From Vulcanimicrobiota bacterium (GTDB lineage: Bacteria; Vulcanimicrobiota; Vulcanimicrobiia; Vulcanimicrobiales; Vulcanimicrobiaceae): 64,000 bases of DNA. How positions within the stretch are numbered: the stretch's first letter is position 1; each line of letters opens with the position of its first letter. The notes beneath the pieces are model-generated. The model searched no databases and had not been told where the DNA came from. It saw nothing but the letters and a program-made list of their open reading frames with translations. Shown one piece after another: positions 3,567 to 60,484 of the stretch. Both the position numbers and the translations under genes were made by a program. The DNA is taken from contig CAWHWQ010000001.1 in NCBI GenBank assembly GCA_963833095.1, forward strand, positions 832,001 through 896,000, written 5' to 3'.

Positions 3567-4760
3567 ATGCTCGTTCGTATCGTTGGACTTGGACCCGGTG
3601 ACCCCGGATACCTGACGGTCGGAAGCCTCGACGCTTTGCGCGAGTGCTCGCGAGTGGTTGCGCTGCTCGCGCCCCCGGACTTGGTGAAGGCGCTCGAATC
3701 GAACGGCATTCCTGTCGATCGCGCGCTGATCCCCGACGCAACCTCGCTCGCGCACGGCAGTGCTGACGCAATCGCCCAGTTCGTCGCCGCGCTGAGTTCG
3801 CTGCCGATCGAAGCCCTCGGTCTTGGTGTCCTCGGTAATCCACTCTCCGATCTGCCCGGACTTCCGCCGCTCTTACGCGCACTCGAAGCGCAGGGTCATA
3901 CGACGCGCATCACCCCGGGGATGCCGCACGCAACGCTCTCCGCGGCGATCGCCATGCCGCTCGTCCCGTTGCCGCCGCAGTCGCAACATTATTCGTGGGA
4001 CGATCTCGTCGAGATCATGGCCCGTCTGCGTGACGGATGCCCCTGGGATCGCGAGCAAACGCATCGCACGCTGGTACCCTATCTGATCGAAGAGACCTAC
4101 GAAGTCGTCGAAGCCATCGAGGCCGAGGATCTGGGGGCGCTCTGCGAAGAGCTGGGCGATCTCTTGCTGCAGATCGTTTTCCACGCGCAACTCGGCTCGG
4201 AGACCGGCAAGTTCACCGTTGCCGACGTCGTCGACGCACTTTCCAACAAGATGGTCCGCCGTCATCCGCATGTCTTCGGCGACGCTGTGATCGAGGATGT
4301 CGATTCACAGTGGCGCAGTTGGGAGACGCTCAAAGCCCAAGAAGCCACCGGACAAAAGCGCAAGAGCCGGCTGGAAGGCATTCCTAAGTACATGGGCGCG
4401 CTGCAGCGCGGGCAGCGCATGCAAGAGAAAGCCTCGCGCGTTGGATTCGATTGGCCGAACATCGGCGGCGTGCTCGACAAACTGCACGAAGAACTTACGG
4501 AACTCACCGAGGCGCGGCGCCTCAAAGCCGATGATCCGCACGTGCGCGAGGAGCTGGGCGACGTGCTCTTTACGGTCGTCAATCTCTCGCGCGCGCTCGG
4601 CATCGACGCCGAGACCGCGATGCGTGAAGCCAACGAGAAATTCTACCGGCGGTTCGCCTTCATGGAAGAGCGCGCCGCCGCAAACGGCAAGACGCTTTCC
4701 GATCTCTCGCTCGACGAACTCGAGGAACTGTGGCAACTGGCAAAGACCCAAGCAGCATAA
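3567..4760 (+). CDS. mazG: YabN/MazG nucleoside triphosphate pyrophosphohydrolase with a degenerate methylase-like N-terminus
   Basis: IVGLGPGD N-terminus; [30 protein letters not shown], second EELGD. Confidence 0.93.
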
Positions 4761-5137
4761 CCGCGTTCATTCGTCTGCGGATGAGCGCGCACGACGCGCA
4801 TTACGGCGGAAACCTCGTCGACGGCGCGCGAATGCTCGCCCTCTTCGGCGACGTCGCGACCGAGCTGCTTATTCGTCTCGACGGCGACGAGGGGCTGTTT
4901 GTCGCCTACGACAAGGTGGAATTTCTCGCACCGGTCTACGCCGGCGACTACATCGAAGCGCATGGCCGCATCACCGGCGTCGGCAACACCTCGCGCGCAA
5001 TGGAATTCGAAGCGCGTAAAGTGATCGCGGCACGAAGCGACGTGGGCGCGAGCGCCGCGGACTATTTGAGCGAGCCGATAGTCGTTTGCCGCGCGAGCGG
5101 CACCTGCGTCACGCCGAAAGATAAAAAACGCAAATAA
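4730..5137 (+). CDS. kal: Hotdog-fold protein, 3-aminobutyryl-CoA ammonia-lyase-like
   Basis: [38 protein letters not shown] signature; GTG start with GAGGA RBS. Confidence 0.8.
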
Positions 5138-5139
5138 CC

Positions 5140-5376
5140 CTTGTCATCCCGAGCGTAGGGAACGTAGTGACCGTAGTCGAGGGACCACAACTACCTACTG
5201 CCCTCGAAGACGCTCGTCGCATCACATCCTGTGCCGCTCCTGCTGCGCGAGTTTTGCGCCACAACCAAAGGAAGTTCGCATCCTGCGAATGGCGCAAAAC
5301 TTCGAGCCTTCTCCGGCCGCAGGTAGTTGTGCTTCCCTCGACTACGGCGCTTCGCGCCTACGCTCGGGATGACAAG
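5140..5376. mobile_element. About 237-bp non-autonomous palindromic element (MITE/REPIN-like)
   Basis: Two inverted units CTTGTCATCCCGAGCGTAG..GTAGTCGAGGGA at 5140-5184 and 5334-5376; internal inverted repeat gttttgcgcca/tggcgcaaaac. Confidence 0.75.
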
Positions 5377-5377
5377 A

Positions 5378-6768
5378 TCAAACCAGACGTGCGTGCGTTT
5401 TCTTCTTCCAGAAGAACTCGTAGTATGTAAACTGCGCGCACAGCATGAAGCAATAGTACGCCGGGTATCCGGCCCACACTCCGGGAAGACCGAAATGTTT
5501 CATGCAGAAATACGCCACGGGGACCTCGATCGCCCAGATGCCGACCAGGCCGTTGAGCGTGGGAACGAGCACCGTACCGCTACTGCGCATCACGCCGCTG
5601 ATAATCGCACTGTTTCCGAAGATCAAATACGACCAGAGCGTAATCATCAGCAGTTCATGCGCGATTTGTACCGTCGGCGGGTCGGTGATAAAGAGCTCCA
5701 ACAGCGGAGTAGCGAGCAGATAGCAAAGTGTCACTAGAATTCCGCCGACCGCATAGTTCAGGGTGACCGCCGAACGAATGACGCTGCCCAACTTATCCTC
5801 GCGGCGCGCGCCAATGCACTGCGCGCCAAAAATCGACGCGGCAATGCCGATGGAGATCGCGGGGAACTGCACGTAGTTGACGATCTGGTTGACCGCACCG
5901 TATGCGGCGGTTGCGTGGGGGCCATAGTGATTCACGAAGCTGATGATTGCGATCTCGGCAAGTGAGACCATGATGACCTGAATGCCCGTCGCGACGCCGA
6001 TCCGAATGACATTCCACAAGATATGCGGGTCGATGATCATGTCGCGGGCCATCTCGAGGTCGAATTTCAGCGGGCTCTTTCGACGCGCGAGCAAGACCAA
6101 GAGTCCGACAAGGCCGACGAAGTTCGCGATAATGCCCGAAACCGCGGCACTGACGACGCCGAGATGCGGCAGACCGAACCATCCTTGGATGAATGCCGGC
6201 GTAAAGAAGACCGCGAGCACGGAGCTTACGATCAGGAAGTAGAGCGGTGTCTGCGAGTCGCCGACACCGCGCAGAAACGTCGTATAGACCAGATAGGGAA
6301 AGATGATCGGCGCCGTGAGGAAGATCACGCGCGTGTAGTGGTCGGAATCCTGCAGAATGGCCGCAGGCGTGCCGAGTACCTGCAACATCCATGGCGAAAT
6401 CAGCGGGCCAACGATCGCGATGGCAATCGCAAAGAGCATCGTCGCGCCCAGAACGGTGCCCGCAATTTTCTTCACCTTGTGTTCGTCGCGCGCACCGAAG
6501 GCCTGGCCGATCAGGACGGTGCTGCCGCTGGCGATGCCGATCAGAAACGAGAACAGCAAAAAGACGACGGGGAATACTGCCGACACCGCGGCCAACGCGT
6601 TGACACCGATCATCCGTCCGAGAAAGATCGCGGCGAACGTCTGCGAAGCCGATTGCAAAATATTGCTGATCATCAGCGGCACAAGAAGATCAACAAAAGC
6701 TGCCACATCGGCTTGCTCTCGTCGAAAATGTTGACGCCCATGCGCCGGGCCGGGGTCGCTTGTGCCAT
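5378..6768 (-). CDS. MATE family efflux transporter (apparent frameshift near 6683)
   Basis: About 12 TM segments, LRGVGDSQTPL, IGQAFGA; a plausible N-terminus MAQATPARRMGVNIFDESKPMWQLLLIFL reads from ATG 6768 in another frame. Confidence 0.9.
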
Positions 6769-6857
6769 AAGCCCTACTCGTTGGCACGCGGGCGAGAAAC
6801 TCCCGGGACCCATAGCGCTGTTTTCTTAATCGTGCCGTGGTAAGCTAGGGCATTGCA

Positions 6858-26947: not shown

Positions 26948-27007
26948 CCTTGTCATCCCGAGCGTAGCGAAGCGTAGCGCTACGCGCCTACGCTCAGGAG
27001 GACAAGG
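26948..27007. repeat. 60-bp palindromic REP-like element between convergent tgt and ileS
   Basis: Arms CCTTGTCATCCCGAGCGTAG and CTACGCTCAGGAGGACAAGG (18/20 complementary). Confidence 0.85.
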
Positions 27008-29811
27008 AATTTACGACCGCGGCGCAGTCGGCGCAGATCGACGGATGCGCCGGGTCGGTGCCAAGCTCGCGGAATTTCCAGCAGCGCGCGCATTTTTCGC
27101 CATGGCGCTCGAGATGAGATCGCAAGCCCGGGATCGTCACCGCCGGAGTTCGTGGCTCAAGGTCAAGCTGCGATGACAACCAGCGCGTCACGCAAGTTGT
27201 CGCCTAATGCGTACGCAAGCGCGTCGTAGTGCGCTGCAGGCGCCGCAAGCTCGACACGTACATCGAAATCGCGGATCTTGGAGACGCGGCAACGTCGCGA
27301 GCGCAGATCGCGAAGCGAGTCTGCCCACAGATCTCGCAGGCTCGCCATATCGGTTTCTCGACGCCGACGCCTGTGGGCGCCGAATGCCGAATCGAAGACG
27401 CTACGTTCGTCGCCGCGTAAGGCCTCGGGAATTTCTTGCCAGGCTTCTTCTGCGGTAAATGAAAGAATCGGGGCGATCGCGGTTAGCATCCGCTTGAGCG
27501 CATAGAGCAGCGCCGACTGCGCGCTGCGCCGGCGGTGGCTGTTCTCGGCCAGCGAATAGAGCGGGTCCTTGAGCGCGTCGAAATAGAAGCTCGACATTGC
27601 GCTTTCGAATGCCACTATGCGCAGATATGCATCATGGATTGCGAAGCCCTCGTAGAGCGCCTTCACGTCGGCTACGAAGGTGTCGGTGATCGCGCAGGCG
27701 AGGCGATCGAGCGGCTCGAGCTCTTCGCGCGGGAGAACGTCTTGCGCCCCGAGGTCGTCGAGATTCCCAAGCATGAAGCGAATGCGGTTGCGGATGTTGC
27801 GATAGACGCGGCCGACTTGCTCGACCACATTGGGCCCGAAGCGCACGTCGTCGACGAACTCAACCGAGGCAGACCACAAGCGCAGGACGTCCGCGCCCCA
27901 TTTGTTCATCGCCTCAACCGCGTCGATGCCGGTTCCGCGCGATTTGGACATCGGGCGGCCTTGCTCGTCGTTGACCCAGCCGTTCTTGACCACACGTTTG
28001 TAGGGCGCTGCGCCCTTGATCGCAACGCCGGTCAGAAGCGAACTCCGGAACCAGCCGCGGAACTGATCCCCGCCCTCCAAATACATGTCGCACGGCCACG
28101 GCACGCCGTCGTGCCCGAGCACGGCTAGATGCGTCACCCCCGATTCGAACCAGATGTCGACGATATTCTTCTCTTTGTCGAACGCGGTGCCGCGACACTT
28201 CGGGCAGTGGAAGCCGGCCGGCAGATAGGTTTGCACCGGGTCGACCCACCATGATCCGGCGCCTACCTCGGCAAAGCGTTTCGCTACGTTGCGCGCGACG
28301 TGCGGATCGAGAATCGATTCATTGCAGGCGGTGCAGATAATCGCGGGAATCGGCGTGCCCCAAATGCGCTGACGCGAGACGCACCATTCCGGATGCGTCT
28401 CGATCATCTGGCGCTGACGCACGCGGCCCCATTCCGGGACATAGTCGACGCCGTCAACAGCTTCGATCGCGCGAGCGCGCAACCGGTTTTGATCCATCGC
28501 GATGAACCATTGCGCCGTGGCGCGAAAAATCACCGGATTGTGACAACGCCAGCAGTGCGGATACGAGTGCTCGTAATCTTGCGCTGCAAACAGCGCGCCG
28601 CTGGAGCGCAAATCCTCGACGATCTGCTTGTTGGCTTTGAAGATGAACTGCCCGGCGTAGGGACCGGCTTCTTGGGTGAAGTGACCGGCAGCATCGACCG
28701 GATTGAGAATCGGCAATCCGTATTTCACGCCGGTCTCGAAGTCGTCGGCGCCGTGCCCCGGTGCCGTATGCACCGCGCCCGTTCCCGTTTCGAGATCGAC
28801 GTAATCGGCGAGCACGACCAGCGAGTCGCGATCCATGAACGGATGACGCACGCTGGTTCCGTCGAGGCGTTCGCCCGGAACGCTCGCGAGCAACTCCGCG
28901 TCGACGAATCGTTCGCCGAGCGCCTTGGGCGCAAGCGCGGTCGCCAGAATCAGTAGCTCATCGCCAAGGCGATACAGTCCATAGGTCGCGTCGGCCCGCA
29001 GCGCGATCGCGACGTTGGCCGGCAGCGTCCACGGCGTCGTCGTCCAAATTAAGATCGAGGTTTCCTCGGTCCCTCGACTACGCGGCTCCGCCGCTACGCT
29101 CGGGATGACAAAGGCGGACAGGATCTTTTCGCGCTGTTCATCATTTGCCGCGAAGCGGACGTAGACCGAGGGCGAGACTTTCGGCTCGTATTCGATCTCG
29201 GCTTCGGCTAGCGCCGTCTCGTCGTGCACGCACCACAGCGTCGAACGCAAGCCCTTGTACAACTGCTCTTTCTCCGCCAGATCCGCGAGCGCGTTGACGA
29301 TCGTGGCTTCGAACGACGGGTCGATCGTTCGATACGGACGGTCGAAATGCCCGAAGACGCCCATGCGTTGACGCGCATCGCTTTGGCGCCCAAGCCAAAA
29401 GAGCGCGCGCTCCTTGCACTTCTCGCGTAGTTCCAGCGGATCGATCCCGTGAAAATCCTTGATGCCCAAGAACTTGAGCGTCTCGAGTTCGATCGGCAAG
29501 CCGTGCATATCCCAGCCGGGAACGAAATCCGCCCACTTCCCGTCAAGCAACGCGATCTTCACGAACACGTCCTTCAACACCATGTTCAGGAAGTGGCCCA
29601 TGTGCAGCTCGCCGTTTGCATACGGCGGCCCGTCGTGCAGAATCCAGGGTCCGTTCTTCCGATTGGCATCCAGGCGGCGCTGGTAGATGCCTTGCGTGTG
29701 CCACCACGCGATGCGATCAGGCTCGCGCTTGGGCAGCTCCGCCTTCATCGGAAAGGCGGTCTTGGGTAAACGCAAGGTCTCGCGATAATCGCGTTCGACA
29801 GTTTCGCTCAT
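26994..29811 (-). CDS. ileS: Isoleucine--tRNA ligase type 1 (apparent frameshifts near the 3' end)
   Basis: [38 protein letters not shown]-terminal CARCW...CADC zinc finger. Confidence 0.96.
29068..29111 (-). repeat. REP-like unit inserted in frame in ileS
   Basis: TGTCATCCCGAGCGTAG-CGGCGGAGCCGC-GTAGTCGAGGGACC, same ends as the intergenic copies; encodes [14 protein letters not shown]. Confidence 0.88.
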
Positions 29812-34051: not shown

Positions 34052-34124
34052 TGGGCGATGCAGGGTTCGAACCTGCGACCTTTGCCTTGTAAGGGCACTG
34101 CTCTCCCAGCTGAGCTAATCGCCC
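34052..34124 (-). tRNA. tRNA-Val(TAC), CCA not encoded
   Basis: GGGCGAT-TAGCTCAGCTGGGAGAGC...CT-TAC-AA...GGTTCGAACCC...ATCGCCC-A cloverleaf. Confidence 0.97.

Positions 34125-54862: not shown

Positions 54863-60468
<5,606 letters not shown>

Positions 60469-60484
<16 letters not shown>

Follow-up and report, generated by a model that had tools for sequence, protein, structure and literature searches.

A repeat unit inside ileS and at nearby gene ends

The window, the whole 64-kb stretch of DNA analyzed here, contains five copies of a short repeat unit: two single copies in inverted orientation to one another, a head-to-head pair, and one copy within ileS (Table 1). Exact matches to TGTCATCCCGAGCG occur at 5142 (+), 26951 (+), 5361-5374 (-) and 29097-29110 (-), and exact matches to GTAGTCGAGGGA at 5173 (+), 5334 (-) and 29070 (-). 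When mismatches were tolerated, end totals in the window did not exceed chance (19 versus a mean of 12.75 for TGTCATCCCGAGCG; 6 versus 4.08 for GTAGTCGAGGGA), so the end signal rests on exact, paired ends. The exact head occurs 95 times in 1.55 Mb (80 related loci plus the window), compared with 2-5 times in three Markov shuffles. An Rfam search of the window returned tRNA-Val as its sole match and no known RNA family for the unit. By its named homologues, the host belongs to Vulcanimicrobiota (Eremiobacterota). An earlier, sequence-only reading had described a unit with identical ends both between genes (5142 and 5374) and inside ileS, which the exact, paired ends confirm; it had overlooked the head-to-head dimer. 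The 150 nt separating the two inverted units (window 5140-5376) are themselves full of inverted repeats. Elsewhere in the window, 54863-60484 encodes a hybrid histidine kinase of 1873 aa, in which about ten HAMP repeats (276 nt each) accompany a GAF domain and three receiver domains.

Table 1. Repeat units and ileS segments in the window
Feature	Coordinates	Strand	Basis or remark
Repeat unit, 43 nt, inside ileS; encodes a 14-residue peptide (residues 235-248)	29069..29111	-	exact-end match, ORF translation, model
Intergenic unit directly 3' of a thioesterase-family ORF (4730-5137)	5141..5184	+	exact ends
Intergenic unit directly after a MATE ORF (5378-6787, -); pairs with the unit at 5141 as a 237-nt hairpin (z -15.6)	5334..5376	-	
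Repeat dimer, head to head (hairpin, z -5.9), where the ends of tgt and ileS converge	26950..27006	.	
ileS main ORF, 882 aa, IleRS; frameshifted near the 3' end in this assembly	27163..29811	-	
ileS zinc-finger end, in another frame; stop 26994-26996	26994..27104	-	final codons and stop come from a repeat copy

The ileS reading frame stays open across the internal unit, and the peptide there is repeat-derived, as the sequence-only reading had stated. Its picture of a 14-residue insertion following SVYVRF stood in part: there are 14 repeat codons, but 14 non-repeat residues, forming a lineage helix, separate YVRF from the repeat peptide, and the net gain is 9, the YVRF-to-WTTT segment being 30 residues long in empty orthologues and 39 in the window IleRS. 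Fourteen repeat codons with a net gain of nine residues indicate that ~5 host codons were replaced, that is, insertion with replacement, and no target duplication is visible at the ileS loop junctions. The spacing from EAEIEY to WTTTPW is 43-47 residues in 65 of 119 IleRS homologues, compared with 53 in the window. In an AlphaFold model of the window IleRS (mean pLDDT 83), the repeat segment lies between a helix (224-233) and a strand (250-257) that leads to WTTTPW, which we take to be the editing-site motif near the start of CP1, described as the IleRS editing domain. The segment is modeled at lower confidence (block mean pLDDT of 76 and 63), and the corresponding segment is short in solved bacterial IleRS structures. 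The homologue spacing and the model bear out the earlier assignment of the copy to a length-variable loop. At the other end of the gene, the terminal residues LSS and the stop codon are supplied by a repeat copy of the dimer, and the frameshift at window 27003-27300 probably reflects assembly indels.

The IleRS loop is filled recurrently across the phylum

We compared the DNA of the best 80 of 556 confirmed GTDB loci, ranked by similarity to the filled ileS query from the window, a sample that covers the ileS neighborhood. One locus (L078) lacks the region, so the 80 loops are those of 79 loci plus the window; two loci (L012 and L038) are cut by contig ends. With a filled loop defined as one containing the head motif with at most one mismatch, the repeat fills 26 of the 80 loops (best 80 of 556 loci) in these soil bacteria, and the initial picture of a one-off insertion was an understatement. 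We found 36 units in 7,831 bp of loop DNA and none in the remaining 199,821 bp of ileS; the flanks, 1.34 Mb in total, contain 70 (2 of these being L012 loop copies that precede the aligned start). The loops comprise 10 sense-VILS, 8 antisense, 7 with both, 2 sense-RHPE (one of them, L007, assigned by eye), 2 type B (both assigned by eye) and 51 with none. Filled loops are read in the sense frames VI[LP]S and [RC]HPE and in the antisense frame AQ[DH]D, with an extra sense frame, LSSR, in protein P0111, one of the 119 IleRS homologues; among these homologues, 33 loops match some signature, of which 6 are unexplained type B and about 3 are doubtful. Fillings come as singles, tandems, nested forms and dimers, and the YVRF-to-WTTT length ranges from 30 to 54 residues. 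Different orientations and frames at a single loop indicate that mobile DNA, and not ordinary inheritance, determines which amino acids the loop contains. Across the phylum, this loop is a hotspot, occupied by the repeat again and again.

Another loop insert, type B (GADLAEGQNATG; GADLAEGQNATGLGK), has a perfect hairpin and is present in 6 of the 119 proteins; it lies at L010:9615-9675, and L001 carries what looks like a remnant or collapsed form. There being no intergenic copy in 1.55 Mb, we do not class type B as a mobile repeat.

A search for orthologues with an empty site, which the sequence-only reading had proposed, succeeded among close relatives: L002, L004, L005 and L006 have short, empty loops, yet the first three have a copy of the repeat at the 3' end of ileS. 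With the loop left out of the tree, the filled or empty state changes 20 times, gains and losses not being distinguished, and 87 of 500 shuffles need 20 changes or fewer; the count lies within the shuffled range, so no phylogenetic clustering of filled loops was detected. Within the 12-member clade of the window, AU tests rejected monophyly both of the five VIPS carriers (p 8e-51) and of the two loci that carry type B, with groups named from their loop sequences but after the loop-free tree had been seen. The left junction is identical in the five VIPS carriers (window, L003, L008, L009 and L011), a basal clade member included, which one old insertion plus later loss or conversion could explain. 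The records of L003 and L048 are titled Acidobacteriota or Babeliales, yet their ileS genes are nested within Vulcanimicrobiota on the tree; mislabeling is the simple reading.

Silent sites in the unit ends do not vary among genomes that are only 52-67% identical at four-fold sites (joint p about 8e-5, codons treated as independent), indicating that the unit DNA is young, converted or constrained, and the repeat-encoded part includes the rare codons GTA (5%), AGT (6%) and CGA (3%). Loop and flank copies have the CCCGAG variant of the clade in common in the window and L011, and short loops in L029, L050, L074 and L079 resemble eroded remnants. Three filled loops (L011, L017 and L030) are out of frame in their assemblies, compared with 0 of 54 unfilled loops, and we tentatively read these as sequencing errors. 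The association of a filled loop with repeats in the flanks (16/24 versus 15/45) gave a Fisher p of 0.011 and, for independent pairs, a median p of 0.29. Occupancy of the loop (26/80) is higher than the 10/75 at the ileS 3' end, 6/45 at the tRNA-Val 3' end and 12/69 at the rluD-tgt junction, these being the busiest nearby intergenic sites, picked after the fact, with rows that are not independent and a query that is itself filled. Occupancy above that of intergenic hot sites is not obviously predicted by pure neutrality.

Repeats outside the loop lie at gene junctions and termini

Of the proposal that a REP-like family adds segments to conserved proteins, the data bear out no more than the IleRS loop and gene termini: the conserved coding sequence of the flanks, 960,154 bp in all, contained no other internal in-frame site, and the real copies there all lie at a gene junction or terminus. 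Twelve candidate matches inside conserved genes were rejected, 5 as apparent chance matches by eye and 7 as lying at gene junctions. Junction copies supply stops, terminal residues and, apparently, start codons. A profile search with the repeat peptides, of low power such that real cases could escape it, yielded 50 proteins, and in none of these did a Pfam family exceed its cut-off; apparently these are spurious ORFs over repeat arrays (14 were read). A blastn search of the repeat DNA against plasmids gave no match.

Several sites near ileS have features of their own. At the tight junctions L027:14342, L058:18757, L041:13800 and L056:14050, an antisense repeat end apparently gives the start codon of the next gene, which is tgt or leuB-like. 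The tRNA-Val(TAC) 3' end is a second recurrent site (L031:2191, L035:5186, L042:2057, L043:2065, L045:5788 and L059:4008), where a copy of the last ~12 tRNA bases often comes after the unit; in the window, the corresponding position (34052-34124) is empty. In L036, L039, L042, L055, L057 and L032, the rluD-tgt junction contains long palindromic elements of another kind, with no sequence relationship to the unit; in the scattered genomes L026, L029, L034, L043, L053 and L077 it contains a common cargo of 550-780 nt.

Anatomy and folding of the unit

Units in the sampled loci are 25-100 nt long and consist of a TGTC head and an imperfect hairpin, with a short stem that closes on a core of tandem G.A/G.A pairs (GAG/CGA) and a variable inner hairpin; GTAG words occur internally. 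Among 43 simple units, stem changes are compensatory (T-A 34 versus C-G 7; C-G 32 versus G-C 6; counts not phylogenetically independent), and 19 contain a C-GNA-G motif, a triloop. In single-stranded DNA, both tandem G.A pairs and GNA triloops form stable structures, which standard folding leaves unscored. Single units gave no significant Watson-Crick hairpin (DNA z 0.3-0.7, three units) and no significant RNA fold (z -0.7 to -1.5 and +0.8). The strong DNA folds are those of the dimer and the inverted pair (Table 1), a correction to the sequence-only reading, which had called the unit palindromic and its variable middle often hairpin-forming.

A small GIY-YIG nuclease is associated with the repeat

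The sequence-only reading had also suggested looking for a nuclease gene flanked by the repeat, and a GIY-YIG gene was found in the lineage. There is none within the window; among the 80 loci (best 80 of 556) one, L079, has such a gene, located in the rluD-tgt junction with its 3' end running into a unit, and in other genomes this junction is empty or contains a bare repeat or other cargo. The L079 nuclease (PF01541) is a standalone, single-domain protein of roughly 100 aa. An atlas search confirmed the GIY-YIG assignment and added nothing further. The only PDB relatives of the nuclease are UPF0213 proteins, suggesting that it may fall outside cd10448. Each of the predicted catalytic residues (Y/Y/R/H/E) is retained in 93-101 of 101 homologues. 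The antisense repeat peptide ends 51 of these 101 homologues, compared with 27 of 2841 control ORFs, the stop often coming from the repeat, and one homologue (P0128) starts with the window's own repeat variant. The nuclease has 14 plasmid matches, 7 of which were inspected: related units lie on both sides in 3 of the 4 best and in 0 of the 3 weak ones. A tblastn search of phages gave 22 weak matches, with 35-38% identity among the 10 matches listed. A crude HUH motif scan of 14,658 ORFs of the sampled loci gave one unconvincing match. As judged from these sequence comparisons, a GIY-YIG subfamily is associated with the repeat; by analogy with Ssn/SRM, it is likely to be the mobilizer.

How the loop may be filled

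We consider it fairly probable that the unit belongs broadly with the CGTC/TGTC REPs, as a strand-specific hairpin repeat that does not move autonomously but is spread in trans by the GIY-YIG nuclease, and that it refills a tolerant IleRS loop. The standalone ~100-aa nuclease, whose gene is flanked by the unit, would spread the unit in trans, nicking single-stranded DNA beside the hairpin as Ssn does, and repair would copy the unit in while trimming host bases, giving replacement with no target duplication. Insertions elsewhere in ileS would be purged, and the exposed loop would tolerate extra residues, acting as an intergenic spacer inside an essential gene that is filled, remodeled, eroded and refilled. 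The repeat-encoded peptide is probably near-neutral.

An unlikely account, but one that several of the data fit, is that one or a few old insertions have since been renewed or replaced, either through gene conversion by intergenic copies or through loops exchanged laterally between relatives, and often lost, with no ongoing nuclease-driven insertion. The left junction common to the five VIPS carriers, the CCCGAG variant common to loop and flank copies, and the eroded look of four short loops all favor it, and silent-site invariance fits old insertion with conversion; however, the opposite orientations and three or four frames need separate events, and the filled state is unclustered on the tree. 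Also unlikely, in our judgment, is an actively maintained landing site, in which a UPF0213-like ssDNA nuclease recuts beside the resident unit and repair from other copies rewrites the loop. If this were true, IleRS would carry a hypervariable peptide cassette, perhaps gating which incoming ileS alleles recombine, and a second GIY-YIG/repeat system, reading G.A-mismatch hairpins, would stand beside Ssn.

Selection might instead act on the nucleic acid, the unit being a nuclease site that gates recombination of ileS alleles, as for NTS/SsnA, or an mRNA structure that tunes translation, with the peptide a by-product. Invariant silent sites, loop occupancy exceeding that of intergenic hot sites and the Ssn precedent (PMC11893778, in the parts available) speak for this, but 54 of 80 loops have no recognizable head, orientation is mixed although Ssn-type recognition is strand-specific, and single units have no significant RNA fold, making it improbable. 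Mobilization by a RAYT/HUH tyrosine transposase, as for GTAG REPs, is very unlikely: GTAG words lie inside the units and RAYTs mobilize REPs, but the terminal tag is TGTC/CGTC, CGTC REPs are reported not to flank RAYT genes (both statements from the available parts of PMC3733652), and the HUH scan gave its one unconvincing match while the flanked gene found is GIY-YIG. Assembly artifact or chance resemblance, to which the indel errors near the ileS 3' end of the window might point, has a negligible chance of being correct given near-identical inserts at the same junction in the independent records P0002, P0003, L008, L009 and L011.

This locus bears on how CGTC-type repeats spread and how REP DNA turns into protein sequence: it offers dozens of naturally occurring alleles, filled or empty, that can be compared at a single homologous position, together with a candidate enzyme of ~100 residues. 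It provides a structural substrate hypothesis for the candidate nuclease that can be tested with oligonucleotides, and it points to a further family of programmable-type ssDNA nucleases. The data also serve as a warning that in these genomes the repeat encodes the IleRS loop, gene termini and many small ORFs.

Comparison with known systems

The closest resemblance is to the CGTC-tagged REPs described by Di Nocera et al. 2013 (PMC3733652, from the parts available), which have in common with the unit a CGTC/TGTC/CCTC head, head-to-head dimers, positions at gene 3' ends and in-frame intragenic copies, among them a CGTC-1 dimer in E. litoralis IleRS (residues 467-488), which by its numbering does not coincide with the loop described here. 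The CGTC REP stem, however, is 8-9 bp and begins with complementary A/T pairs, whereas the unit has ~5 Watson-Crick pairs plus tandem G.A and one G-C, with A-T as the first stem pair in just 12 of 43 units. The CGTC REP loop is 4-5 nt, compared with about 5 nt in minimal variants here and inner parts of 17-23 nt in the window copies, and the unpaired tail of CGTC REPs, mostly CCA, is not evident by eye in the 95 listed units. As far as the available parts of that paper go, REPs in genes of one functional class occupy different sites (recB excepted), whereas the same ileS site is filled in 26 of the 80 genomes compared here, and no dedicated mobilizer was found for CGTC REPs.

The SRM/NTS repeats and Ssn GIY-YIG ssDNA nucleases of Chenal et al. 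2025 (PMC11893778, consulted as text parts and 12 of 14 supplements) likewise combine a YGTCAY head with a small, standalone, repeat-flanked GIY-YIG gene. According to these parts, SsnA cuts ssDNA a few bases upstream of its repeat with strand-specific recognition, NTS/SsnA gates transformation in Neisseria, and NTS rarely lie inside genes (2%). The published degenerate SRM pattern is matched by 0 of 95 units here, and the same text parts and supplements contain no match for this repeat or phylum. The RPEs of Rickettsia, as portrayed in the available portion of a review (PMC10969869), also give palindrome-derived in-frame peptides in housekeeping proteins, but they are ~150 bp long, encode a conserved peptide and are spread over many unrelated genes within a single genus, while the units here are 25-100 nt and fill one loop in several frames across a phylum of soil bacteria. 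GTAG REP/RAYT systems have a terminal GTAG and a flanked RAYT gene, in contrast to the TGTC head and the lack of a convincing HUH ORF (crude scan) here. As for the MITE traits of target-site duplication and terminal inverted repeats, the unit shows a 3'-end duplication at the tRNA-Val site only.

The literature covered, which leaves out most subscription journals, contains no description of this repeat family, of its nuclease association or of an IleRS loop that is filled time after time. Both REP-type insertion in frame and repeats associated with GIY-YIG genes have been published before; new here are the recurrence of a repeat at a single site of an essential enzyme, in multiple frames and across a phylum, and a repeat-nuclease pair outside the SRM definition.
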